Assembly (NCBI GenBank): GCA_030141605.1
Contig: JAQGDQ010000003.1
Span: forward strand, 1,736,001 to 1,800,000
Source: Tubiluchus corallicola
Lineage: Eukaryota > Animalia > Priapulida
Reading direction: 5' to 3'
DNA: 64,000 bases
The translations under genes and the position numbers were made by a program. How positions within the stretch are numbered: the stretch's first letter is position 1; each line of letters starts with the position of its first letter. The notes under the pieces are model-generated. The model was given only the letters and a program-made list of their open reading frames with translations. It had not been told where the DNA came from and ran no database searches. Shown here one piece after another: positions 11,990 through 63,369 of this stretch.

Positions 11990-14900
11990 TAATGAAGTCA
12001 TCCTTAATTACTTCAACAAATGATCTCAAAGTGTCGCTGTCATTTTGCTTTTGAATTAACACAGCAATGTTAGTGGTGTTAATGTTATTCTTAAAAACCG
12101 CTTTTGTGAGTCTACGAAAGGGCAGTCGAAAAGTAGATGTTCACAATTTTGGGGAAGACCACATAAACAAGAATTGTCATATATGAGACCTAATCGGAAT
12201 AAAAAATGTTTAAAAAATCCTTGTACATGAATAAAACTTAGAGCAATGGATTCGAACTCTCTATTTGTAGGTGAAATTGGTAAATTAAAGGGCTTACTAA
12301 GTTGTGGGATTATGCCAAACCATTCATTTCTGTTTTCTAACAAAATATAAGCATTGAATTGTCTGTGCCTAAGAGTTTGCTTGAATTTATCCAGATCAAA
12401 TTTTGTAACAGACCAATTAATAGATAGTTCTTCGTTGTTAATTCGCCCTGCATCTCTAGTAGTAGCTAAAAATTGCCTTAAATCTCTAGCATAATATTTT
12501 ACAAAGTGGTTATATAACAGATAAAAGTTAGTATTAAATATGTACAAAAGTTCTTTCTTAACTAGATCATCATCACCACCCTGCAATATTTTACTTAGGA
12601 ATCTTACATTATGAGCTTTCATTTCTAACAATACCCTGCAAGGTTTAAAGGATTAACCCGTTGCAGTTCTGAGGACATCTTAATACAAGTCATCAAATAA
12701 TGAATATTTTTTTAGCTAACCAAACACTGGCACTGTATAGTATAACAGGTAATACAAATGTTTTAAACAATTGCATAATAGTTGCCATTCTCATTCCTCT
12801 GTATTTAAAACACAGTTGTTTAATTTGTGTCCATTTGTGCCATGCATTTTTCGTAACTCTATTGGCATAATAATCAAATTTCAGATTACTGTAATAGTGA
12901 TACCCAGTACTGCACTATTTTGAACATATTCAATTTCATTATCACCAATTTTTAATTTGGGCAAATTGTTATTTACTATATTTTGCGTAGACCCCGTGAT
13001 CATAACTTCCGTTTTTTTTCCCATTACAGTTGACTTTCAGCCGCCATTTTTTACACCATAGATGTAACTTATTACAATAGATTTGCGCAGTATTACGACA
13101 CTCATCAGTCATCAGAGTTTGCTTTAGAAGCGTAAAATGTGCCATCGTTTGCGTATTTAAAGACGTCTGCCATTTTATTGGATCTTACATCATTCAGCAT
13201 TTCTGAGATAAAATTATGAATAAAAGAGGCGAAAAGACAGAGCCTTGCGGAAGGCCAATATTACTGTTAAACATTTGAGAACAGAAATTACCTACACTGA
13301 TAAAAAATGATCGACTCAAAAGCAATTCCTAATTGATACAATTTGAAGATTAAGCCTTTGATCCACACACTGTCAAAGGCCTTTTCAAAATCACAAAAGA
13401 CACCGATGGCAGGACATGTTTTTCTTTGTGAGGTCACTTTGCATTTTACTAATTAGGCGAAACAGATATCGTTCAGTACTATGTCCTGAGACAAAACACT
13501 CCTGTACTGTTCAATACCTCCATTGGGCATTTTAGAATTAATCGGTTAGCAAAGAGTCGCTCGACAAGCTTGCCTATGTAGGAAGACAACGACAAAGGAC
13601 GATATGCATTGGGATCCGCATATTCATCTTTGCCCTGTTTTTTTAATAAATATTATTTTGGATTCTAACCAAAGCCATTCTTGCGTGCTTAAGCATACAG
13701 TACTTACATTCAGAAGTATAGATTTGGCCCAAAATCATTCGGGGATGGATACCATCCATACCAAAGCTTTTACCGTTTGAAGAACTTGAAAGGAACATTC
13801 AAAAAGTCGTCATTTCCTTCACTATATTCTAAGGAGTCAACAAACTGATGAACGAACCCTTTCCAGTTGTTATCAAATACGTCGTTGTCCAAATGGTTAC
13901 CACCCATGAAGAAGGTTTCATGGAACAAGTTGCACTTGTCCTCATCAGTAATATAATAACGGTTATCATTTTTAAGATGTCAACTTGATTGTCTTTTATG
14001 TTAGGAAATACCTTATGATATGCTTTCCAAAAGTTTACGCTTTTGGACGAGTTCATATTAACTGAGTTATTGAGAATCCAGTTATCTATTTGTAAAATTA
14101 AACTGCCTTTAAACTCTTTAGCTTGAATATATGCATTATAGGCATTATGGGACGAGTAACGCTGATACCTCTTTTTGAGTTGTCGAACATTTTCACGTTT
14201 TAATTCGGGATTCCAAAATGGTTTACTGTATTTACATACACGTTTGACAAGCAGGATTTCGTTAGAAGTTTCAGTAATCAAATGCCTAAAGCGCTCCCGC
14301 AATTCTTTTGCATTTCGTAGATTCATACATGTAATAATACTGTTAAAATTTTCCCGTATTTTAGTTTCTAAAGTGTGAGGCCACAGAGCCCAGTCTGCAT
14401 TCTTCAAATCATAAACTCGGCGAACCTTACGATTTTCGCTATGTCCAGCGTTATTATTCTAATGAGTTATAACTGGATAGTGTCCCATTCTGGGAGCCCC
14501 AGAAAATAATTCAATTTCTTTTTCAACATACTGTTCGCGAACTTGAGTAGCAATACGGCCACTAGCCAAAATAAAATCTATGACACTTGTTCCATTAAAA
14601 GATTGAAAAGTAATATCGTCGGGGCTACCAGAACTGCACTATTATTAACAATATAATCGTACAGTAATGAACCGTGTACATTATTGGTAGTATCCCATAA
14701 TGTATGGCGACAATTCAGGTCTCCAGTGATTAAAGTTCCAGCTAGACTGTGCTGACTAGCAAATGAATTGGCTTCACGGCAGTTGTTTAACATAGCTTGT
14801 AGGACGTGGGGCGAATTTGGCGGAACATACGCTGACGCTGATAAAATTCTGTAGTTTTTAACACTAACTAAAACCCATACAATGTCAAGGTCTCTATGTT

Positions 14901-15172
14901 CTAATTCTGGGACTCTACAGCACGTAATACCTTTTCTTACAAGTAGAGCGCAACCACCTGATGTTCCCTGAGATGGTTTAGCATATGTTTTGAAATTAGT
15001 TAACTGTATCGATTTAATATTTTTGCGTTCAATTTTAGTTTCTTGGAGGGCTAATATGTCACAACCAGGCCTTAAATCATTAATATATCCATCTAATGCA
15101 ATTTTAGAATGCAAAGAAAGGTTATTGATATTTATCTGACAAATTACAAGAGGTTGCTCTTTATGCTCCACC
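11990..15172 (-). pseudogene. LINE ORF2 (endonuclease/reverse transcriptase), frameshifted
   Basis: Multiple frameshifts; catalytic YADD reads YAND at 13155-13144. 3' end approximate. Confidence 0.88.
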
Positions 15173-16374
15173 GTTGCTTTGCTGTTTCTTCTCCCACTTT
15201 TTGCAAGTCGGACAATCTGTGTTGTCAGCAGTATGGCGGCACGCACAATTTGCACATTTGGTTTCCTCTGATGAACAATCTTGCGTTTTGTGATTCCCAG
15301 CACACTTTTTACATACTGGATTTTTCTTACAGAGTCTAGCTATGTGATTGAACTTCTGACAATTAAAGTATCTGATTGGTTTTCGCAAAAACAAGAATTT
15401 GTCAACACAGCATAACATATTACCGATGAAAAGTCCTTCTTCTATAGCTTGTTCTAAGTCGCTTTCCTGTTCGAATTTCACCGTTGTTAGAATTTTCTCC
15501 TGTTTATGAAACCTTTCTATGCTTGCTCCAGGATAAGCTTTAGACACAAAGTTTTGCACTTCTTGATCAGTTAGTTCAGTGTCGACGTCACGTATTAATC
15601 CGATTCTGTTTTGTATAGGGTGTCTTGCATTTGAAACCTCCCAAAAACTCGGGTCTCCTATTAGCTACAACAGCCTGAGCCTCCTCAGCATCACGAAATT
15701 GAAGCTGCACATTACCTCTTGTGGTTTTGTAGGCCAATCAAATCTCGGTTTCGGAAAATGTATGCTGATGTGCTTCTTAATAAGCATACTATTAGCAATC
15801 AAATCCCTTCTTTTCACATTCTCTATAATAACAGTTTTGTTCGCCTCGTATTCAACAGTTCTTCGGTTCATTGGTTTAACTATACTACTTCCTGGACGAG
15901 CTACAGAATCGTTTCCATTCGAAGTTTTAACATTCTGCATTAGTTTACCTGCATAAGACATCTGTACAGAATTATTTTTCCGTGATTCATCTTCTAATTG
16001 CTGAATTCTAGTAAGAGACTGTGCATGACTAGTTTTTAACTTTTCCAAGGCAGCAGTAACGTTCCTTAACACTTTGAAAAGACCATCAATTATTTTGTGT
16101 AAATATTTTGCATACTTACAATCGTTAGCATCGCCCCAAGGTATTTTGTCATCCTTGCCTCCAACGAGTGCAGAGCGGTCAGGCGAAGTCGGCAACATAA
16201 TTGCTTCGGTTTCGTGATTATTACTATTTGACGAACATTTTTTTGTACACATTTGTTGCAAATTTTAAGCCCACCGAACTCGGGTCTTTTACAAACATCT
16301 GTGTTTCTACGGCAAATTATGCATGTGTTCCGCTCTCGTTTTCCAGTTGTATTAGCTGCTGCCACAGGTTTCAT
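15161..16374 (-). pseudogene. LINE ORF1 (gag-like), frameshifted
   Basis: Fragments in three ORFs; [Y]FNCQKFNHIARLC, CKKCAGNHKTQDC and CANCACRHTADNTDC knuckles. Confidence 0.85.
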
Positions 16375-16632
16375 TTTGTGTGCCAATTTCACCTTGTAAA
16401 TAGGCCTGCACACCTTTAACGAATTTTCAATCAATGTTCGAATGCCAATAGCACAATAACCATACCACGAAAATTGACAAATTATATATTAAAAGCACAG
16501 CAATATCACGAAGATTAAGATGCTCAAGTTATTTCTCAGCTAAGTCTGATTTTTCGCCACTTAAATTATCAAGTTATAAAAACTTTTCATGGACGATCAA
16601 GATTTGTACCTGCACAAAATGAGCGCATGCGC

Positions 16633-49351: not shown

Positions 49352-49541
49352 GACATTAACATGTCTTCAAATGAAATATCATGTTTGCCAGAAGATTTTT
49401 TTGTTTGCTTACCATTTTTGGAATGGTTAGATATGAGATGCAACAAGTTACAGTTATTACCTTCCTCTATAGGACAGCATCCTCATTTGAAGTATCTCCT
49501 TTTGTCTAACAATAATTTGACTAAACTTCCTACTTCTCTGG
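49352..49541 (+). CDS. LRRC27: LRRC27-like, LRR exon
   Basis: tttgcag|DINMSSNEISCLPEDFFVCLPFLEWLDMRCNKLQLLPSSIGQHPHLKYLLLSNNNLTKLPTSL+G|gtatgt. Resembles recalled human LRRC27 ([33 protein letters not shown]). Confidence 0.9.
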
Positions 49542-50098
49542 GTATGTTAGTGCATCCAATCTCAATTTTGCTAATATATTTAATACTTGATCATTAAGAA
49601 TTTTCACCATGCTGCTTTCACATTTTCACCTAGCCAAAATCAGTCTGATTCGAAGCAGTTTTGTTTTGTATTACTTATAGGAATGTTGTTGCAATTGGGT
49701 ACTAAAATATAATCAGTGCATTGGCATATGAACTTCTACTTCTTGTTCTTCCAGACATTTAGAGGATTTATCATGACTTACACTTCTTCTATAGCTTTTT
49801 TTTATTTTTACATATTTTGATTATTATATATTCAGTCATCCTGTAATCGCTTGAATTGGTTGGCTAATTCACTGCCTGGACTTACTGTGTAAGCACCAGG
49901 TTCAGGTTAACACTACTGTTTTGAATGCTTATTGATAGTTTTAGCAAGTACCGTGGCTTATGGTTTAGACTCTAGTTTTGCATAGCTTGTTACTAATCTG
50001 CTTTGTTTCCATGCATTTTTTACATTGCTAGTATAACAGAATAAAGTTATAATATAAAGAAACTAGTTTACATTGTTTTTCATTCTCTTTTCTTTCAG

Positions 50099-50254
50099 GT
50101 TGCCTAGAAACGCTTTTAGGGTTAAACCTGGCCAACAACCCTTTGATTTTTCCACCTGACCACATTAGAGAGAGTGGGTATAAGGCAGTACTTACATACC
50201 TGCGTGATGCATACAAGGATGACTTTTCTTCCACGACTTTTCGTAATATTATAG
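50099..50254 (+). CDS. LRRC27: LRRC27-like, last LRR and cap exon
   Basis: ctttcag|(G)CLETLLGLNLANNPLIFPPDHIRESGYKAVLTYLRDAY...|gtatgt; phase 1 to 1. Confidence 0.9.
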
Positions 50255-50506
50255 GTATGTGTTATAAATAGCTGATCTTCCATACAACTTCTGAAATTTG
50301 ATAATCAAAAGTTAAATTTTATGTTTTTTAATGCACCATTGAATTAAGAAATTTGTGGGTTTTTTGCCTGGTGAAGTATAGTCTTGATCAAAATAAGAAT
50401 GCAAGTAACATTACTTGCTAAATGCTATTCATTTACAAAAGACAATAAAATGCCTTAATAGTACGTTCATAACTTAGTAACCTTTAAAAAACTTTATCTG
50501 ATATAG

Positions 50507-50690
50507 TGGAAAACCAGTGTCAAATGCTTTCCTCACTAACTGAAGTGATGCCTTCAAAAGCAGCTAGTCTAACATCAATTGAGAAAAAACCAGACAAGGA
50601 ACCTTCCATTTTTCCTGAGTGTGTGCAAAAACCATCTAAACTGAAAACCAGCTTTTCTGAAACAGCAACCAAAGTGTGTAGACCAGCAAG
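50507..50690 (+). CDS. LRRC27: LRRC27-like, low-complexity exon
   Basis: (V)ENQCQMLSSLTEVMPSK...VCRPA(R)|gtagaa; open frame, phase 1 to 2. Confidence 0.7.
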
Positions 50691-51419
50691 GTAGAAGCTA
50701 CTGTATCTAATCTGACAACCAAATGTTATTTTGACAGCATTATAGATTTTAATTATATTAATTGTTATTTATAATGCATTGCTTTGCTCTGCACTTGAGA
50801 AAGTTTTCAGTGGGTGTGTAAACCAGGTTTAACACTGTTTGACAGATTTCAGAAAAGTTTTTCTTAATAAAGAAACTTACAAGATGCCTTGAGGCTGCCT
50901 AAATATCAGTTTTTGAAACATATTTTTTTCATTTTAGGTTAGTAAATGCTTTCTGGAATGTTGAAAGCATCATCTGCTTTCATGAATATACAGCTTATTT
51001 GTGTAGATTGTTTGAGCAAAAATGCATTACCTCATTTCATTTCAGCAAGAGCTATTTGTGTCAGAGTTTATTTTATTCTGTATTAATATGAACAAAATAA
51101 ATGAGTAAACGCATCAAAATTTCATATTACACATTATTATTAGTGGTGTGGTATTACACTTTGGGAGAAGTAGAGCAGATATGCTTAGAGTTTACTGCTT
51201 GCTTTTTTTGGTGTAATGTAGTTTACAATTTATAATTTGCATGATTTCTTTTGTTTAATATTGACTTTATTATTTACCTATGAGATTTCATGTGAATTGC
51301 CAACAACAGCAGCTTACATTATGAAGTATTTATTTATTTTGTGGAAGGTTTCATCAGCATTGCACTTTTGATTTGTTGCACTTTTATTTACAAAGATAGA
51401 TTACACAATTTCTGTTTCT

Positions 51420-52625
51420 TAGGAGTGCTCAAGCTCTGGACAGAATAGAGGTTCGGGTCGGGATTAGTGGCTTGGGATCAGGGTTTGGAATGCTAATTGA
51501 GTTCAAGGTCGGGATTTTTCGGGGTTCGGGATCCCGGAGCCTTAAATATAAATATCAGTAAATGGAAACTGAAGAAAATTACAGAAAAGTTTCACATTTG
51601 TTGCTCCACTTTGTTAATATTGATAACTGCAACATCATTTACCCCGCCCGTAAGCCCATGCTCGGTTCTGACCTTTTCTTATTTTCTTTTTGACCACATG
51701 ATTTCGTAGATTCAATAATTGTAGGTTTATTTCACTAAGTAGTAGTTTCAGTAAGTAATCTTGAAATTATGATTATATAAATATTTAAATGTGTTTGTTT
51801 ACTGTGGTGTTTAATTTACCATCCTTAATTATAGGTGCCTAGAATTCTGGACGAAAATGTGTCTCGACTATAATGAACAGATTTCACCCAAACACACTGC
51901 CTGGTAGCTTGTCAGCTAAAACGTATTAATTACTCTGTTATTCAGTGAATGATTCTGTAAAACATTTGCTTGCTTGGTCCATTATGTATTAGTGATAAGT
52001 GCATTCCTCATTTTTCTGGGGTGTCTCCTACACTAAACCTGCATACTGCACTATGATAAGTAAGCACCAAGTAAACTTAGTAGTAGTCTTTTTGCTATGA
52101 AGTTATATTAACTGTTAGAAAGAATAAATAGAAAGGACCTACTGACTAAGAAGTATTATCTTCTTTGGCGATATTTACACAGAAAAGACGCTAGTAGCGG
52201 TACTGTGAGACAAGAAAAACACAAAATATTTTTCGTGAATTGTTCCAGCATTATTGGAAAATGCACCCTGCCAGAAGTGTTACGGTCACAGATGGTCAGA
52301 TGCAATCTGTGCTGCAAAAAGCTAATCATGTATTTACTTTAAACTACTTACAAGACACTTTAGAAAATAGCATTAACAATCACACGATGCAGCAATGGTT
52401 AAAAAAATCTCATGAAAAATATGCATTCACGAAATTTAAGCAATAAGAACTTGATGAATGGCTCATTTTTCTTCACACTGCCATAGAAACCCAAAGTATG
52501 CATTGTTTTTCAAAATATTATAAACTTTTAGAGTTCGGGGTTGGGATGGGACGAAAAGTTCGGGAACATGATTCGGGCTCGAGATTCGGGGTCATGATCA
52601 AGTAACTGCGATCTCGAACACCCTA
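51420..52625. mobile_element. hAT-like non-autonomous DNA transposon
   Basis: 8-bp TSD CTGTTTCT at 51412-51419 and 52626-52633; termini TAGGAGTGCTCAAG and (revcomp) TAGGGTGTTCGAG; TTCGGG subterminal repeats at both ends. Confidence 0.8.
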
Positions 52626-52697
52626 CTGTTTCTGAAAAATGAATGTATGTTTCTTTGTTTTCTGTTACCTAAAATAAGCTAGCGCAATACTTTTCAG

Positions 52698-52841
52698 AAA
52701 GAATTTTGGTATATCTACATCTCAGAATAGATTTTGTGTTCGGCCTTTGATCATGAATCTCCAGCAGATAACAGCAGAAAGAAAAAAAGCATGGCAATTA
52801 GAACGTAAAGAGAAACAAACGAGATTTTCTCATTTACAAAA
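52698..52841 (+). CDS. LRRC27: LRRC27-like, coiled-coil exon
   Basis: ttttcag|(R)KNFGIST...MNLQQITAERKKAWQLERKEKQTRFSHLQ(K)|gtaagt; phase 2 to 2. Confidence 0.65.
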
Positions 52842-53442
52842 GTAAGTAAAATTTGTTAGTAACTGTCCACCACTTAGCTACCTTGTTAAAATGCTTACCA
52901 CTGTTCGTTTTCACACTAATAACTGTTACTTAATTATTTGTGCAAATGATTAGGGCAGAATACAGTTTCATTAGTTGAATGGAGTAGTATGGACTCACAT
53001 AGTATGAATTACAATGTATATGACGTTTACTAACAGACAGCGTGCTAAAACCACCACTTTTTAACCATGACATTACCAAGACCAAGACTCTAGATCAAAA
53101 CCGTGTATTGTAAGACTAAGTATGGAAACATGGTTTGTAGAAATTATCTTTGGGCATATTGAGGCTTTACGTTTGCTATATAATTAATGGTGTGAATAAT
53201 TAAAAAAGTAATTGGCTAAAATTCAAATTAACTGCATTTTGCACATGTGAAATGTCAAAAACAAACTTCTAGACCTAGACCAAAGACTTTATGCTGGCAA
53301 AAATTGGCATCCACAAAATCAAGATCAGTACTGACACGACGATTTCCAGAATCACATCTGTGCTGCAAGTTTTTGTGTGAACTATTAGTACTACGAATTA
53401 TTTAAAATTTTTTGTTTGCATAAATTTATCTATAAATTATAG

Positions 53443-53492
53443 GGAAAGAGAAGAGAGATGGAACAGGCAGGTCAGAGGTGAAACTGTAAAAG
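53443..53492 (+). CDS. LRRC27: LRRC27-like, small exon
   Basis: ttatag|(K)EREERWNRQVRGETVK+G|gtaatg; phase 2 to 1. Confidence 0.6.
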
Positions 53493-54795
53493 GTAATGCA
53501 GCTGTTGTGATTACACATTAAACTTTCGATAAGTAAACTGATCAAAAACACTTTGTGCTTGATATTTTTTCGACTTAATAACTGTTTATCACAATGGCTT
53601 CATCATTTGCAGAAATCATTATTGATATAAAAAATATAAAAACATAGTATACCTTGAATAGGGAGTGCAAACACTTTCTAAAGTAGAGTTTAAATTAATT
53701 TCGTTGCAGCATAGTTTAAAATCGCATACTTTTTAAGAGAGTCTAAAACTTTCGTTTAGCAGGAGAAGTAGCTTAAAATAGAATAAATAGCATAATTATA
53801 GCATAATTACAGACGTAACTCAGCTGTGGCCTCTTATTTATTAGGTTTATGATGAATTTTAGTCTACTATTTTTAGCTTAGTTGCGGCATTAATTAGATG
53901 TGACTGCTATGTAATTGTCTGTTTTTCTGTATGTGCATTGTGCATAGAGCTTTCTGGAATACAAAATTTGCAATAATATATATTCCCCAAATCCTCAAGT
54001 GTGCTTCACTTAGAAGACAAAAGGTCTCAAATTTTTTCTATACATCGCACACCTCTACCCGCAGTTCAGTGATAGCACTTTGTCGCTAATACTTGGACTG
54101 CACTTTATCAAAATTTAGTGCAATAAAAATTAATATATCAAAATTATGGCTTCAAATGTAATTAGGGGGGGAGGTGTCCTCACTAAAAAGAGACTAAGGT
54201 CTAAATGACCTACTCTACTTTGAATAACTAAATGTACGCTATGCAATGCCACTTTGCGTGACTCCAGCACTTCCTACTTGCAAACTTACTATAGTAATAA
54301 TCTGCATTTTGAAGACCTACAGTTTAATGCTGTATTCACTTATTCTCAAAGTGCTGAGGTGGGTGAGATATTTTCTAGAATAATTGTTTTCGAGTCATTA
54401 ACTAACTAGTCAGGGTGTGTTCGTTTAGTTGGTTCCTATTTTAGCTGTGAAACGTGTGGGCCTATTTTTAGGCATTTTAGGTGTTTGACGATGGGGGAAA
54501 AGCAGAAACCCGTGTTTTTTTGGGCATGTATATGTATTTGGGTGCATTTCTAAAATCTTTAAAAAATATTGTTATTTAACAGTCCTAGAGCTCTAGTGAT
54601 AACAAAAATAACAATTTATCAGATTGAAAAATAATTTATCACTAAATTTAATTAATAATTAATCCAAGTGCAATTAACATAATTGAAGTAATATTGAAGT
54701 GATTTGAGTATTTATTATAAGAATTATTAAGTTGTATTGCATTTCTGAAATTTCCATTTTAACTTACCAACTAATTTATTGTTTTTATTTTTCAG

Positions 54796-54833
54796 TTGCC
54801 GCTAAATATAGTAGTCTGGAATATATCCCAAAG
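54796..54833 (+). CDS. LRRC27: LRRC27-like, small exon
   Basis: tttttcag|(V)AAKYSSLEYIPK|gtgagc; strong splice sites; phase 1 to 0. Confidence 0.6.
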
Positions 54834-54965
54834 GTGAGCATTTATAGGCCAAAACCATCATAAATTGCAAAATTGTAATAATCTTATTTTACACGTCTTT
54901 TGATAGGTATCAGCTTGTTAATCACTTCCTGTTGTTATCTAGTAATTAATAATTATTTTTTCAAG

Positions 54966-55024
54966 GGTAATGACAGCAACTGTGCCTCAGTTATAAAAGA
55001 CAAAGTTCAGAATTTAGGCATAGG
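54966..55024 (+). CDS. LRRC27: LRRC27-like, small exon
   Basis: ttttcaag|GNDSNCASVIKDKVQNLGI+GG|gtacgt; supplies the phase 0 to 2 link needed by the flanking exons. Confidence 0.5.
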
Positions 55025-56129
55025 GTACGTATTGTGCTTTGCATTTAATTTTGCACGATTTTTGATGAAATACTTTGTTGGAACTTATATTCAGTCACAT
55101 TAGGTTAGTATTTTTGAATTTTAAGTAGGTTAACTTGTGAGTAATATTTACTTCTTATGCATGAAGAGTACTTTCTTTTTCAACTCTTAAGTCAACAAAA
55201 GTCAAATGCACGATGCCTACAATGTACAACTTAATTTTTCCCCTGCATATTTGAGTTTTGACTTTGTGACTTTGTGTTATGCTGAACTTTGTTGGTGTGT
55301 TACAATGATATTTAGATCTGTCATTATATAACCGAAGTTAATATATATCAATATGAATTACTTTCTTTTTTATGACAGAAGTTAATACATATTAATATGC
55401 ATATATTTGACTTTTTGGCACAATATTGCATAAATTTATTATTAAAGAAATATATATATATATATACAGTCCCAGACTATATTTAATTAAAAATTAGCAT
55501 ATAGTCAAAAGATTATTTCAAATTTCAAATTTGTCCATTCAGAATAATAGAAATGCAAGAATGACCTTGCAGTCTAAATATTTATTTTTACCTTTTTAAT
55601 TAAATACAAATTCTCTTGCTTCATTCTTTCAATGTGATTCAGAAATCTAATAAGAATAGTTTGGGCTTACTCCATCACTCACGGGATTTATATCTTAGCT
55701 AAAGCCTAGTGCACGAGGAGGGTAGAATACAAGAAATTCTGAATTATTTTATAGTGGTTTTGTGTTTACCTACTGAAACGTGCTCACAGACGGTATGCTT
55801 CCTGCAAATGAAAAACAAAACGCATGCTAAACAGAACCATAACTATGTCGTGATTTGTTTTTGATCGATGGTTAGCTGTCTTGTGTTTTGTGAAACAGCT
55901 ATTGTGCAGTTGTACACTGGCATGCAAAACAATTTGTTTTGTTTCATGAATCTAGCCATGCTTGTTTTGTAAAATGTTTTTGTTTTTTTCTCTTACACAC
56001 TGATGTCAAATTTTTTGTTTTCTGTTTACTGTCCCTTTTGTGTTTTCCCTATTCGTGCATATTGGGCTTAAGACTTACTTGCTTCTTAGGTGTGGTGCTA
56101 TCGTTAACCACAGATTTATTGTATTGCAG

Positions 56130-56250
56130 GAAAGAGTTTTCAACACCGAGATTAGAGCGTCAAATACGAGAGAAGCAACTGGAGACTAAAAATATGGGTC
56201 TAAACAGAACCCAGCCTACACTTCGCTCAAAATCTGCACCTAAATTACAG
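56130..56250 (+). CDS. LRRC27: LRRC27-like exon
   Basis: attgcag|(G)KEFSTPRLERQIREKQLETKNMGLNRTQPTLRSKSAPKLQ|gtacaa. Confidence 0.6.
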
Positions 56251-57417
56251 GTACAAAACAATAAAGATGGAAAAAATTTCATACTGAGATCTAGGTACCC
56301 AGATTTACATTGTTATCAATGTATAAAAAAAGCATTTTAGTAATGTTTTTAGTCGTGGTCTATTTAAACTACATTTTGTTTATTGTATACGTTTACTAAT
56401 CAATTTCAAGCAGTTTGAAATTACTGACAGCTTTAGAGATGTACTATTGATTTTTTATATGTCCCTGTCAAAAAATTTTATGGAGTTCAGACAGATTAAA
56501 GGTATCGCCAACTATATGACATCCTTTTACTACCAATTAAAATAAAAAATTGCCCATTTATTTTTGTTAAAATGTTAAAATCAAGCACTGTTAAGTTAAA
56601 TTGAGTACATGTATATGTATAATTAGGCTGAGGTAAAGATCTACTAGTTGACCGTTTAGTGCTTCCAACATTTTTCCATATTTGCATTAGCACATCTCAA
56701 TTTGCTAAAGTTTATGTCATATTTATTGCTTTCCTACGTTTCTAAATTTTTGATGGCCACAATGTTTGATATGTGGCATAGCGGTTTAACTCTAGATACT
56801 GTGTCAACATGTTTTTTCTATACAATTTGGCAATCAATGATGATCATGAAAAGCTCAAAGCTCAAAGGTTATTTGTACTTATGCAGCATTAACAATGAGT
56901 TTGTGTACATTAGCAATGCCATGCTTTTACTATTGTCATGTTTCAACTTCAAGTGATGTTTATTTACACTATCTGACTGCTATAGCCCTTTAAATAGATT
57001 TAGATCAGAGTACTATGTTACATGTAGCATATATTAGTTTCATTGGTAAATATATTTGCAGGCATTTGCCCGTTTTTTTTGCAAAACTCATACCTCTTAT
57101 TTCTAGGAAGCGAGAATATGCCGGGGGTGTTGCTGGTAATGGTAATGGGGCTATTTAGAATTTGCAAGAGAGCCATAGTTTCCTGCAATAGACTTTTCCC
57201 GGATTTTGTGGAAAAATGTACAAAAAGCCTTCAGAAAAAATTAATTTCTGCAACTGTTCGGGCATGTTGTAAAAAATAAGCACACTTTTAGAAAGAGGAT
57301 AAGTGGTCTACGAGGTATGAAGGTTTCATAGGAGAGATGTCCATGTGTTTCAGAAATTATGCAGCTGTTTCAGGCATACTCATCACCCAACAATATAGTG
57401 TGTTATAGATTGTAGAA

Positions 57418-57975
57418 GATTAGATTAGGTAAGATTAGATTTATTCATTCCAAATGTACAGTTGCACATACACAATAAAATCTTATAAATAAATATGATT
57501 AGCTAATGTTTTAGGAAAGGAGAAAGCCACCAGGCATGAATGCACTTATGGTGACCCACATTAATTAGTTATTTCTATTAAATTTACAAAAAAGAATTAA
57601 AATCAAACATAAGTAGTTTAAATGAAAAGAAATGTAAGCTGTTAGCAATAATAATTTCTGAAGGTAAACTGTTCCACATATCAATCACCCTGTTCGCAAA
57701 AGAGTATTTAAAAGCATCAATACGACAATAATTTTTGTACGACTTATAACCATGGCCCCTTAATCAGAGACTAGGTGCGTAGGTACAAAAAATCATCACA
57801 ACTTAGATCTATAAGTGCATGGCAAATTTTGTACACCATTTTCATATCAAAAATAAAATTTCTAGTTTCAAGAGCCTGTAGTTTCAAATGGTCTAGTCTT
57901 CTAAAATAGTTAACATAAGTTAACCCATATTTTGCATATAACTGCTTTGTAACATATCTTTGTACTCGCCTAAGA
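57418..57975 (-). mobile_element. CR1-like LINE 3' fragment
   Basis: LRRVQRYVTK...Y..RL..LKLQALETR...DMKMVYKI and RGHGYK...FANRVIDMWNSLP; tail AATAAATCTAATC. Confidence 0.8.
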
Positions 57976-58194
57976 TAACCAGATAACTCGCTATCAGATA
58001 ACAAGTAAGTTATCTGGTAGCTTGTTATCGTCTGAGAAGCAGTAAGCAAAAATTATGTAGAATGTACGTGCATTATTGATTATTGGTAGATATGTCTAAT
58101 AGCATTTTGTCATAGCACACAGTTTCAACTTTATGCAAGATGTTTTACATTATGTCGCTATGCTGTTGTATTGTTGAGTTGAGTGTTGCTGGTA

Positions 58195-58325
58195 TCATAT
58201 TGTCATTGTCGTCATCATCATCATCATCGTCATTGTCAACATCATCACAGCATGTTGTGGAGTGGCATGGTATAGTCTGTATGGTGAGTGTAGTTGGTGG
58301 GTTGTTGTTGTTCTTGTTGGGTGAT
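58195..58325. repeat. Low-complexity (TCA/TCG)n and (TTG)n
   Basis: Direct reading. Confidence 0.7.
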
Positions 58326-59177
58326 GTAGTCTAATGTGGTGTGGGTTTATGTGCAAAATTACACGACTAGTTTACATTAATTTTAGTCAAACATATTAAT
58401 TCAGCTGTCAGCTTACCTGATATGACTTTTATTGAATTTGCTATTTCCAAGTGTAATAACATGATTATAGACAAGTGAGAGTACCAGACTATCAGGTAGT
58501 TGAGGTTGGGTGGGTACCAGCTTAAAAGTACAAGTAATCTTTGATCTACTGCAATTGTGCATGTGTTAAAGAAACTCTAAAAAGACTTATTGTGACTCAA
58601 CAATAGCACTTACTGCTGTTGTTGAATACATATGGCTGGAACCTAGCTGATTATCAAGGGTAAAGCTCTTCTCTTGGTCTCTTTGATGACACTCTGATCT
58701 GGCAGAGTTGCCTTAGCCTCATGAAGGCAGGAACATTCCTAATACAATTAGGCTTGGCTGTACTTAACCTCAGGGCCAGACACAGTTTGTAGCCATTTGC
58801 GTATGTGCACTCATTTGATAAATGGCCAAAATTTGAAAATGGGTAGTCTGGTGATTGTTGTTTCTTAGTTCACTGTAATATGTCAGGTGAAAGCTAATTA
58901 CTGAAAGACTTTGTTAACAGATTTCATTTCAAAGTTGCAGTGTCTCAAAATTGCTCAGTATCAGTCAATAAACTATATGCTGTAAGCTAGTGGTTACTTC
59001 AAAATTACAATGCCTTATCTTTAACAGCACACACTGCAGTCCTTCACTGTATAGAACTGAACTAGAATTGTTATATACAAGTGCTTTAAACGTATTCTTT
59101 TTTTCACTTTTCTACTCTCTGTGCCATAACTTATATATTTTTGTTGGTTCTTCTGAAAGCTGCTTATTCTTTCTTAG

Positions 59178-59198
59178 AAAAGGCAGTTGACCAGATGA
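59178..59198 (+). CDS. Possible terminal coding exon of the LRRC27-like gene (KRQLTR*)
   Basis: Strong acceptor ttctttcttag; phase 0 gives a short peptide and TGA. No homology support. Confidence 0.3.
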   Translation, partial: KRQLTR

Positions 59199-62172
59199 AG
59201 ACTTTTTTTAGAGATGTGGTCTTGAAGATTGCTTGCAATGTTTTGATTTCTAAGTAAGTTTTTTTAATTAATTAGTATTGATAATGTATTGTAAGCTATA
59301 ATGTGCCAGTGGCTCATATTATCATTGCTAACTACTAATAAACATTCTTGCAGTGATTTTTATCAGCTATGATGTTTCTTATAAAATAAACTTGCACTTC
59401 ATTTCACTTGAAATCACGTGCCTGATGCTGTTTTATTGAAATGTATCTTTTGTAACCAAATGACATTGTTTTTTTTTGCTAAATGCAAATAAATGCTTTG
59501 GTTTTATTCCATTTCAATAAAATCATCAGGTAATGCTTTAAATCAAGTCATGTTGCATAGTGAAATTTCCTGGAAAATTTAGCAAAGGCCTGCAAAACCT
59601 ACAAGTAGAAGAAACAGAAAAAAATGTGTAAGTTGTCAAGGGTTTGATTTGTCGTCCAGTCATTTCCAAAACCCTTTGGTCACAGTTCAGCCATATTAGC
59701 CTCTTGTACTTTGTAGTGTGTACCCAGCACATGCCACGAATGAATCACATGATTGATTACAACTTGTATTAGATGAAATAACGTTTAGCAAGATTTTATG
59801 CACTATTCAATCACTGACAAGTTTTTTATGCTTTAAGCTTAAAAGCAAAATGTGGCATTAACAACTTAATGCGGAATTTAGATAATATCACAATAATTTT
59901 AGGAATACGATAAGCTCATACTTAATAACACTCACATTAGTCTTCTCTAAAACACCCTTATTTTCTAATAGAACAGGTGTTCATAGTTCATCAGCATTAA
60001 GTCAATAAAACTAGTTTTGTTTTGAAATGCTATTCTGTTGCACAAATTTTTCGGGTGGACCTGAAACAAGCAGGAGGCTGTGAGACATGCACGAAATGCG
60101 ATTTCAGTAAAAATTTTGCACTAATTGGACCTAAAATCGGAATGAACCTGCAGGAGGATAATGTCCATAGTCAGGCAAATTTTCAAGTTTTAACTGTACT
60201 TCTTTTTGGCAGTTATAGTGTGGCACTACAACCAAGCAACGGCATACAATGAAGAGAGTTAAAATGTTGCTTGCCCACTCTCTGATAAGGTTAAAAGCTA
60301 CAGTAACATGTTTCTTCTAGTGAACATCAATATTCACTTAGAATAAGGTATGCCCAATTTCTTTCTTTCAGATGTTTGGCAGGATAATGCAATAGAGCCT
60401 AATCCATACTGACATGATACAAGTTCACCATTTTTATGAACTACATCACTTATCACATAGTTACAGTTAATTAAAACTTGTATTGATTTTTTTTCACCAA
60501 AATTGGTGAATAATAGATGAAATAAAACATTGTTACTTATTTAAATATTTATTAGTACATTAATACAAGTCAAATTAGCACTTTACACAAATTACTTTGC
60601 ACAGCTGTAACACACTGCATTAGTTCTGATATTTATTGGGTTAGTCAGTACAATTTAAATAAATAGCACTTTCTTTACTTTTAAACTGCTATAAAATTTA
60701 TGCTGACTTATACAATTATAATCTCCATTTCAAACAAACACATCTTGCTTATTTGGTTAAAGAAAATCTTTTTGTCGTTCAAAAGACCTTATTATAGAAT
60801 CGATTTCCCATATTTACTTTTATAAATTTAACAGGTAACTAATATAAAAAAAAGATTACGAAACAAATCACATATTATTTCAACAATTTTGATGTTAATG
60901 AAAATTTAAAATCATGTGACACATTGGCAAAACGTGCCAAAATTACCAAAATTTTTCTTACTGGCTAAAATATGTCACTTTCGAAAAGGAAACATAGTCT
61001 GACTTTTGAAGTGACACATTTGAAAAAAGTATGTTATAAATGAATGCAAAATACAATTTTTGTTCATTAACATTTACATTCATTTATTTTGAGGCTGAAA
61101 CCAAATGGCAACATTTATGAACAATGTCAATGTTGCTGTATTGTGCAAATGACCTTAGCTTGCACCACCATTTTTACTAGCCAATCTTAAATTACACAGG
61201 ACTATCAAATTTTGAATTAGCTGCATAATGTTTGGCACAACTTTGTGAACAAACAGTTTAACAGAATCATACCAAAATGCTGCTTCTGATGTAACACAAT
61301 GCCAGCTGTGTCACAATCTTATTAATGGCTTTTATTAACCACATTTGAAACCAGAAGTAACCAGTTACACCATCTAAATTCACGTACAACAGGCACGTCA
61401 TAGTCATTTTGACAATATAATTATGTACATCACAAATTATACACATGAAAGTCGGTTACAGTTAATTAGTACAGTCTCAACAGATCAAAATTGAGAATTG
61501 TTGCACAAATTACATATCACACCATTGAATTACTTGCAACAAAGCAGTTTTAAAATCTATCTTACATGAAAATGCTGAAACAAGATCCAATTCTATACAC
61601 GCCTATTACCAGGTGACTCGGTGCAATGCGTTTTATTCAGTTTTATAATAACAAAACTAACCACACGTTAAAATTGACAATCAATGCAATGTGATATAAT
61701 ACTAACTCAGCTATATAACTAACTATGTAACTCAGCTATAAATATAGCCAGAACAAAAAATAAATTGCAAACTCGTGTATTAATTTTTTCAATAAGCCTC
61801 AGAATTTCTTGAATGACTACATTTAAATGCTTAATATGAATAAGGCATAGGTTAATGCCCACTATTTAGTTTACTATATCATGAAAGCGAAAGAGACAGA
61901 AAAAAGAATAATACACTAGCATGAAACTGAAATGCTTTGTTTCATTATCAGTTAAAGATATTACTTTTACTGTCTGTCACTGAAAACAAAACCTATATAA
62001 CTCCAATTCCCAGCAGCATAATTGGAGATAGCTAGTACTAATCAGAATCATCAGACCATGTGAAATTAGACAATTCTGAGTTAATTACATATTTCCTTTG
62101 TGCAACAAGGTTTAGCTTGTTCAGAAAAATAGAAAGTACAAACATGTATTTGGTGCATAGACACAGCAAATA

Positions 62173-62754
62173 TCAGCTGGAGTTAGGCCAGTTTTGAAAG
62201 TAAGCAGAATATCCCGCCAAAGCATTGAGCAAAAGCGAATCGTCCGGAAACATTTGCTCAGAATAGGGTTGCGCTGTTGCCGGACTCTGCAACAAATCTC
62301 TATATCGTGCTTGAGCGGAATTGAGATATGTGGAAGCTGAAGAGCAATATTCACTTTGTGGAACTTCTGCTAGTAACGCATTCTGCAGAATCGAATCACC
62401 ATCCCTGTCTAGTCTTGGGTGTGAATTATTTGCTACTGTTTCCCTGTAATCATCTGCTAAAGTGCCATAAAATGACGATACAAACTGATTATTCCTGCGA
62501 TGCTGTGTATCATACTGCGAGTTACTTTGTCCAGCTAGAGCACGTCGGAGATTGATCCTCTGCTGAGCCTGGTTCTGGTAGTATGCACCGTACTGACTAG
62601 TAAAATCAAACGCAGGACTGGTGAGCCCGGATAATGAGCCAGAAAGAGCGCTGAAGAGAAAAGAGTTAGGATCAGATGCCTCCGTTTTCACGTTCAGCCG
62701 TTGATCGACAGCCGTGTGTACACTGCTGGGTTGGACAGCACGGCTTGCACCTAG
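62173..62754 (-). CDS. Putative stop-codon readthrough extension of PIAS (193 codons plus TGA)
   Basis: Open frame directly in phase after TGA-CTAG; visibly more GC-rich than the 3' UTR below 62170. Confidence 0.7.
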   Translation of the reverse strand, partial: LGASRAVQPSSVHTAVDQRLNVKTEASDPNSFLFSALSGSLSGLTSPAFDFTSQYGAYYQNQAQQRINLRRALAGQSNSQYDTQHRRNNQFVSSFYGTLADDYRETVANNSHPRLDRDGDSILQNALLAEVPQSEYCSSASTYLNSAQARYRDLLQSPATAQPYSEQMFPDDSLLLNALAGYSAYFQNWPNSS

Positions 62755-62757
62755 TCA
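62710..62757 (-). promoter_or_regulatory. Readthrough signal: UGA-CUAG plus 3' stem-loop
   Basis: TGA CTAG GTGCA AGCCGTG...CACGGCT; arms at 62745-62739 and 62716-62710. Confidence 0.65.
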
Positions 62758-62904
62758 GTCCAAAGATATGCAGTCCTCAGGGGAGCTAGCCTGCTGGTTG
62801 TTAAATGTGGAGTGAATCACCTCTGGTGTAGAACTTGCTGTACGGAAGGCACCATTGTTAGTAGGAGGGCTGTAGGATCTCTCTGGCATCATAGTTAGAC
62901 CCAG
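62755..62904 (-). CDS. PIAS: PIAS-family SUMO E3 ligase, last coding exon to the canonical stop
   Basis: tttttag|LGLTMMPERSYSPPTNNGAFRTASSTPEVIHSTFNNQQASSPEDCISLD*; the end matches the PIAS1/2/3 C-terminal SIM (DIISLD*). Confidence 0.8.
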   Translation of the reverse strand: MGLTMMPERSYSPPTNNGAFRTASSTPEVIHSTFNNQQASSPEDCISLD

Positions 62905-63325
62905 CTAAAAATAAAATTGTGTCAGTTCAGAACCATAACTATGTTAGTTTTCTATACAACATTAGTTTATAGACATACACAAAATATGCCAATTTACTAA
63001 AAATGCTATGGAGCTTCATAACAGAGAAAACTTGTGACAAATTCGTGGTTACAATAATAAATACATTAATTGAAATTTGCCTTGGTACAGGTTTAACATT
63101 TGTGATAGTACAAAACAGAAAATATTATCATGTTTTATACCTTCACACTGCAGTTATACGGCAAAAGTATGTTTGCATTTTTAGCAACAGTAACTTACTA
63201 ACTATAAGGAAATACTTATTCCTAGAACATGTTCCAAGCTCATATTTAGTTGTATGTATATAACAAAATGTTTCATGTGAACAGTTCTAGTTATGCAAAA
63301 GACGGACGTATACAAGTCAACTTAC

Positions 63326-63369
63326 TTGTCTTGCCTGTTCTTGCTGTAACATGCTGAACAAATCGTATC
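63326..63369 (-). CDS. PIAS: PIAS-family SUMO E3 ligase, penultimate coding exon
   Basis: tatttag|(G)YDLFSMLQQEQARQ|gtaagt; matches the recalled PIAS3 segment GLDLFSFLQTESQ. Confidence 0.75.

Follow-up and report, generated by a model that had tools for sequence, protein, structure and literature searches.

An important question raised by the 3' end of a PIAS gene on the minus strand of the window, i.e. the whole stretch of 64,000 nucleotides that was analysed, is whether the TGA that closes its reading frame always ends translation, or whether the CTAG directly behind it lets some ribosomes pass into the long open frame beyond. A functional UGA-CUAG readthrough of PIAS, giving rise to a long isoform, is in our view the probable answer; that it occurs in this animal itself is what we infer from its sequence. 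A sequence-only reading of the same DNA had proposed such a readthrough. Its coordinates for the last acceptor, the last exon, the first TGA (62757-62755), the CTAG, the 193 sense codons and the second TGA (62175-62173) are all exact (table 1), and the extension is indeed more GC-rich than the UTR beyond, as it had said (0.468 versus 0.307 in the next 579 nt, with 0.291 in the last intron). With the recoded stop included, the tail of a readthrough product amounts to 194 added residues.

Table 1. Layout of the PIAS 3' end; positions are those of the window, P0123 and P0122 are two proteins of a relative and X1 is a set of genomic contigs (see text)
Feature	Position	Strand	Remark
Penultimate PIAS exon (2 nt + YDLFSMLQQEQARQ)	63326..63369	(-)	phase-1 acceptor, phase-0 GT donor; 13/14 residues as in P0123
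Last intron, GT...AG, phase 0, GC 0.29	62905..63325	(-)	absent from spliced P0123
Acceptor AG of the last intron	62906-62905	(-)	
Last exon, coding part, 49 codons, LGLTMM...SSPEDCISLD	62758..62904	(-)	46/49 residues as in the last 49 of P0123
Terminal CISLD, putatively SIM-like by pattern and position	62758..62772	(-)	CVSLD in P0123
First stop TGA, likely readthrough codon	62755..62757	(-)	unchanged in X1 contig; end of P0123
CTAG readthrough context; its AG doubles as a weak in-frame phase-1 acceptor look-alike	62751..62754	(-)	
In-frame extension, 193 sense codons, rich in S/A/L/Q/N/D/Y, one Lys	62176..62754	(-)	
VKTE, extension codons 22-25, SUMO-acceptor consensus	62680..62691	(-)	pattern match, seen post hoc
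Acceptor look-alike in codon 35 (CTAAC, 12 pyrimidines, CAG), phase 2	62651..62670	(-)	
Length difference of 9 nt, in frame and stop-free (three residues), window versus X1 and relative	62551..62552	(-)	
Second stop TGA(T)	62173..62175	(-)	P0122 ends on the same residue
Inferred 3' UTR, GC 0.30, CpG o/e 0.40	60530..62172	(-)	
AATAAA signals in the inferred 3' UTR	61637, 61336, 61088, 60637, 60553	(-)	

When the read-through protein was compared with 1.84 billion representatives, two matches were returned, P0123 and P0122, from the one relative found in that collection. P0123 (262 aa, partial, from a Logan contig) spans the window's last intron and ends at the same residue as the window's last exon. 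It starts with a partial zf-MIZ tail (E 0.002, below the curated cut-off), matches the structures of PIAS2 (E 2.7e-20) and PIAS3 (E 1.6e-15), has a concordant Atlas lead (score 0.85) and comprises an SP-RING end, a SIM-like acidic stretch in its centre and, at its C-terminus, a hydrophobic-acidic motif. Because P0123 crosses the intron, matches PIAS2 and ends where it does, the gene is, as judged from these matches, a PIAS SUMO E3 ligase, its splice frame is set, and the TGA at 62757-62755 is on the same grounds the normal PIAS stop and not private to one assembly. SP-RING membership is shown via P0123, with the zf-MIZ domain itself lying outside the window and the SAP and PINIT domains beyond both the window and the partial P0123. 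All three points had been made before, from the end motifs of vertebrate PIAS proteins, and all three stand: the identity through the matches of P0123 (zf-MIZ tail, PIAS2 and PIAS3) and not through those motifs, the reading frame through the phase-0 donor of the penultimate exon together with P0123 running across the junction, and the ancestral or normal status of the stop through its being common to the relative's spliced product. A PDB search with the 49 residues of the last exon alone gave no match.

The same frame runs unbroken up to the stop and on beyond it, as would be expected if a longer PIAS had recently acquired a nonsense change or if the TGA were a sequencing error. However, the stop is also present in a contig of X1 that shows differences from the window at other sites, P0123 ends at the same residue, and 4 of 11 distant PIAS loci (counted out of 44 from metagenomes after 33 without a callable stop had been dropped, with ends read from open frames, and including the near-copies L033 and L035 and the close kin L019, L036 and L013) end directly on a SIM-like motif, so that an error or nonsense change is largely refuted and hardly credible. 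CTAG follows the stop in none of these 11 loci, whose second frames measure 0-39 codons; thus, the signal is not family-wide, and UGA-CUAG on PIAS seems to be lineage-restricted. As an observation in its own right, L013, L019, L033, L035 and L036, all animal-type PIAS, have a long last exon with a serine/proline-rich end and no terminal SIM-like motif; going by these sequences, SIM2 may have been lost in some lineages.

Is the extension coding? Its frame is stop-free in only 3 of 20,000 dinucleotide shuffles, which carry 8.1 stops on average; over the same stretch there are 8 and 14 stops in the other two minus-strand frames, and 11, 11 and 9 in those of the plus strand. GC content steps from 0.465 down to 0.304 at a change point at 62151 (range 62214-62131) that brackets the second stop and not the first, and stretches of 579 nt reach a GC of 0.44 only here and at a CA microsatellite near 5 kb, the other exons found being shorter. 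At 0.79, the CpG observed/expected ratio of the extension resembles the 0.76 of ten other exons in the window, unlike the 0.40 of the UTR. The amino-acid skew, run with a Markov null and as a mononucleotide version, is specific to the frame: in frame 0 it was reached by none of 4,000 frame-blind Markov simulations, as compared with 248 and 214 of 4,000 in the other two frames; six UTR controls gave 581-915 of 1,000. Behind this skew are scarce lysine (1 versus 6.6) and isoleucine (2 versus 10.7) and abundant glutamine (18 versus 9.6) and aspartate (12 versus 5.4); alanine is also rich and asparagine enriched, and leucine and phenylalanine are not depleted. Codon-position periodicity is marginal (P 0.048), by a score that was trained on 348 codons and that, applied to the real last exon, fails to pick the correct frame. 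CTAG, making up between 0.3% (window) and 0.9% (extension) of tetramers, points to more than chance. On the other hand, a chance TGA-CTAG will be expected when many windows are scanned, which counts against readthrough.

Three other explanations for the open stretch were rejected: antisense coding, given 9-11 stops in each plus-strand frame; a CpG island, because the CpG ratio equals that of other exons; and a recent repeat, with one contig at depth 11.5 on the extension versus several hundred on nearby repeats, depth being a rough guide. Searches for homologues gave no family in Pfam, no match among proteins of 339-2000 residues, no usable match in the Atlas and, in metagenome contigs, 256 pattern matches with none confirmed; an alignment search returned P0122 and P0123 alone. 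AlphaFold, run on two sequences, gave a mean pLDDT of 39, which is uninformative and no proof of disorder. Separately, a single CpG is present in the 147 coding nucleotides of the last PIAS exon (62758-62904; observed/expected 0.12), as against 0.79 in the extension, a contrast for which a methylation boundary close to the first stop is a possible cause.

Comparison with the relative adds a record of how the extension has changed. P0122 (157 aa) corresponds to extension codons 41-193, i.e. the part of the extension that the relative covers, with 129 of 157 positions identical (82%), the same last residue, and two in-frame indels (3 and 1 codons) with no stop. The earlier reading had named frameshifts or stops in the extension of relatives as a refutation, and over these codons P0122 has neither. 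For P0122 and for P0123, the only contig given is one of 3082 nt; because of this equal size, one spliced transcript probably holds PIAS (P0123), its stop and the open extension (P0122). Of the 3082 nt, the coding core takes up 1383 nt and leaves 1699 nt, and there is an AATAAA 1619 nt past the second stop; this fits one unspliced transcript and equally well a splice of 100 nt, and was not counted.

X1 consists of genomic contigs, since introns are covered. In its contig over 62032-62950, TGA-CTAG is unchanged, a single substitution lies 3' of the second stop, and 9 nt are inserted in frame at 62551/62552, encoding three additional residues that P0122 has as well. The contig may be a second allele with one of the two indels of P0122, and X1 perhaps comes from the window's own sample. 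Within the last intron, this contig folds back at 62933-62973 (41 letters, opposite strand), which is a small inversion, a palindrome or an assembly artefact. Gaps in X1 coverage were given no weight, and a second set, X2, had no contig over 61000-64000.

These comparisons bear on whether the stop could be leaky with an idle stretch behind it, i.e. a GC-rich 3' UTR, perhaps a decaying exon or tail, open by history or chance. At the distance of P0122, the neutral chance of meeting no stop is by itself 0.21. Judged against neutral change, the 23 differences in 152 codons show no excess of conservative substitutions (P 0.25-0.31), and the extension diverges faster (15%) than the last two exons (4/63; Fisher p 0.11). 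The 9-nt length difference lies within a species or close kin, and short-lived, lineage-restricted, disorder-rich extensions are described in flies in the accessible part of 10.64898/2026.07.13.738141. Against such idleness, however, both indels keep the frame, whereas 11 of the 12 indels listed for nearby repeat-rich non-coding DNA are not multiples of three; taken together, no stop and two in-frame indels have a neutral probability of 0.002-0.023, according to the share of in-frame indels that is assumed. The end is shared, and the differences lie away from the ends and cluster in the middle of the extension (P 0.004-0.019 over four window sizes). The frame-specific composition would still require a coding history. 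An idle extension is thus decidedly unlikely; selection on its frame and ends is likely, and on most of its residues selection is weak.

Translation or recoding might also take another route: a separate downstream ORF could start at a codon other than ATG, A-to-I editing could turn UGA into a tryptophan codon, or selenocysteine could be inserted. In the relative, a gene caller placed a separate start at codon 41 of the stretch, and there is an in-frame GTG at codon 22, but in the window codon 41 reads TTA and an in-frame ATG comes no earlier than codon 168. No paired structure lies over the stop, and none of 25 inverted-repeat pairs spans it, which argues against editing. With respect to selenocysteine, an Rfam search of 59000-63000 up to E 5 gave two chance-level matches and no SECIS, an element that can escape such a search when divergent. 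These routes are very improbable.

Alternative splicing into the extension would explain every coding signal described above. The extension would then be an alternative last exon, which a minor isoform enters at 62751 (phase 1) or 62651 (phase 2), bypassing the TGA. The first of these sites, the AG of CTAG, is in frame with the weak cryptic donors at 62852 and 62843 to which the sequence-only reading had pointed and which are present, with a third GT at 62834, as well as with the phase-1 donor that precedes the penultimate exon (its phase taken from P0123 and the exon, the site itself not being located in the window). The second site, a look-alike overlooked in that reading, has CTAAC followed by 12 pyrimidines, a tract that arises in 1.2% of codon shuffles and, with both strands counted, three times in 64 kb; the real last acceptor, scoring 1.0, is close to the 0.4 of 62651, and P0122 begins downstream of both sites. 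Yet on splice-site matrices that are small and built on the same real sites, 62751 scores -2.3 and 62651 scores 0.4 as compared with 1.0-13.0 for nine real acceptors, and the cryptic donors at 62852, 62843 and 62834 score -4.6 to -8.3 as compared with 3.8-9.5 for 11 real donors. Moreover, 62651 is in frame neither with the two donors that flank the penultimate exon nor with 62820, no phase-2 GT exists in the last exon, and the intron offers one 8-nt cassette look-alike. Upstream of 62651 the frame is already open, GC-rich and carries VKTE. Protein searches returned no protein in which PIAS is fused to the extension, which is a weak argument, and splicing does not predict a leaky stop context. 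Overall, we regard splicing into the extension as unlikely. A side observation is that joining 62651 to the donor of the penultimate exon would yield a PIAS with a 14-residue alternative end and without the terminal SIM-like motif.

How would readthrough operate here? The PIAS mRNA would remain unspliced across the first stop, and at UGA-CUAG a near-cognate tRNA would compete with release in a few percent of ribosomes, such that a minority decodes UGA as an amino acid and continues to the second stop. The residue inserted at UGA would be Trp, Cys or Arg. The product would be a long PIAS with the 194-residue tail beside the normal protein, in which the terminal SIM-like CISLD becomes internal and to which the tail adds a polar, probably disordered stretch with one lysine of the SUMO-acceptor type. 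This only lysine of the extension lies in VKTE, which conforms to the SUMO-acceptor consensus; [VIL]KxE turned up in 0.4% of 200,000 residue shuffles and a looser pattern in 1.7%. The location of VKTE upstream of 62651 favours translation from the first stop onward. What the long form might do is speculative, with altered partners, self-SUMOylation, stability or nuclear-body location as potential effects, and the main targets of selection would be the frame of the tail, its composition and both its ends. A stimulatory RNA structure at the stop was not found (z -0.42, and -0.08 to -1.36). According to the accessible text of PMC4132726, the UGA-CUAG motif works without a 3' structure, 12 nucleotides 3' of the stop are enough for readthrough in reporters, and reporters in human cells show readthrough between about 3.5% (MDH1) and 31% (OPRL1).

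The remainder of the window provides a genomic setting. A STK32 kinase gene on the minus strand (43442-1281; seven exons found, one with the donor GTTTGT) extends past the window's start; its best match is from Priapulus caudatus (84%), with which it is grouped at 100/95 in a tree of the window's protein and 37 of the 120 listed proteins, none of the 120 being from a named arthropod. On this footing, the host can be placed as a priapulid or as some other ecdysozoan that evolves slowly. Leucine-rich-repeat exons on the plus strand (49352-49541 and about 50099-50254) belong to a gene that converges on the PIAS 3' end; an exon at 56130-56250 (plus) is possibly part of the same gene (49352-56250), whose last exons were not found. 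Several long but broken open frames at 12059-16488 (minus) look, by eye, like a decayed non-LTR retrotransposon, and 57068-58200 is a high-copy repeat with many variants and a summed X1 contig depth of up to about 470. The 64-kb window has no tRNA.

If PIAS readthrough is real, a core enzyme of the SUMO pathway joins the genes controlled by readthrough, with a long and selected extension in an animal group for which we found no such case in print, and this bears on whether long readthrough tails are a speciality of insects and crustaceans. The locus is also an annotation trap, with gene callers splitting it into PIAS and an orphan ORF (P0122). Its reach is limited by a textbook mechanism, a seemingly lineage-restricted signal and an animal that is difficult to work with, and its support comes from two taxa and from sequence data. 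A far bolder picture, which we put forward tentatively and think rather doubtful, is that PIAS readthrough serves as a SUMO E3 switch in a priapulid-like worm, with a buried SIM, a disordered tail and a dedicated lysine for self-SUMOylation, and that long insect-style tails on ecdysozoan nuclear regulators occur in lineages remote from Pancrustacea, whether inherited from further back or evolved independently.

The mechanism itself is known, and it is the PIAS gene and the lineage that are new for it, with no earlier report found. Our literature search found no report of PIAS readthrough, which subscription papers or parts of supplements could hold, and no paper on stop codon readthrough in priapulids. 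The main text of PMC4132726 contains no occurrence of 'PIAS'. In the gene table of Jungreis et al. 2016, as far as it is accessible (PMC5100048), hdc is present, and the fly PIAS identifiers and 'var' were not found; the accessible part of a 2026 fly atlas (PMC13278127) includes kelch and headcase, and no 'Suppressor of variegation' or PIAS gene.

Three known systems provide the relevant comparisons. PIAS1-3 carry a second SIM (SIM2) at the C-terminus, as stated in the accessible text of PMC8998487, and P0123 resembles them in its SP-RING end, central acidic SIM-like stretch and terminal hydrophobic-acidic motif, whereas an in-frame tail behind the stop, as in the window's gene, is not reported for them in the accessible text of the papers found. 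UGA-CUAG readthrough was described for OPRL1, OPRK1, AQP4, MAPK10 and MDH1 (Loughran et al. 2014, PMC4132726, accessible text). PIAS shares with these genes the identical seven-letter context, the independence of a 3' structure and a second frame with coding marks. In contrast, their tails, as far as that text goes, are short (13 residues in MAPK10), vertebrate, widely conserved and shown by reporters, while the PIAS tail has 193 codons, is from an invertebrate and is seen, as sequence, in two taxa.

The closest parallels in length and composition are found among flies and mosquitoes. In its accessible text, PMC5100048 (Jungreis et al. 2016) places abundant readthrough in Pancrustacea only and reports that Drosophila and Anopheles second frames diverge faster than first frames; vvl gains 286 residues by readthrough, as reviewed in the accessible part of PMC8863297; and the top-tier fly extensions in section 7 of PMC13278127 have less K and I and more Q, D and A. 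The window's tail shares the direction of K, I, Q, D and A with these top-tier extensions, whereas N, L and F behave differently. Unlike the insects, the window's host groups with Priapulus, and one gene says nothing about how abundant readthrough is there. Nevertheless, as far as the accessible insect data go, the likeness to Drosophila and Anopheles extensions includes the TGA-C context, the long GC-rich second frame, its faster divergence, and a tail rich in Q, D and A and poor in K and I that is attached to a nuclear regulator.
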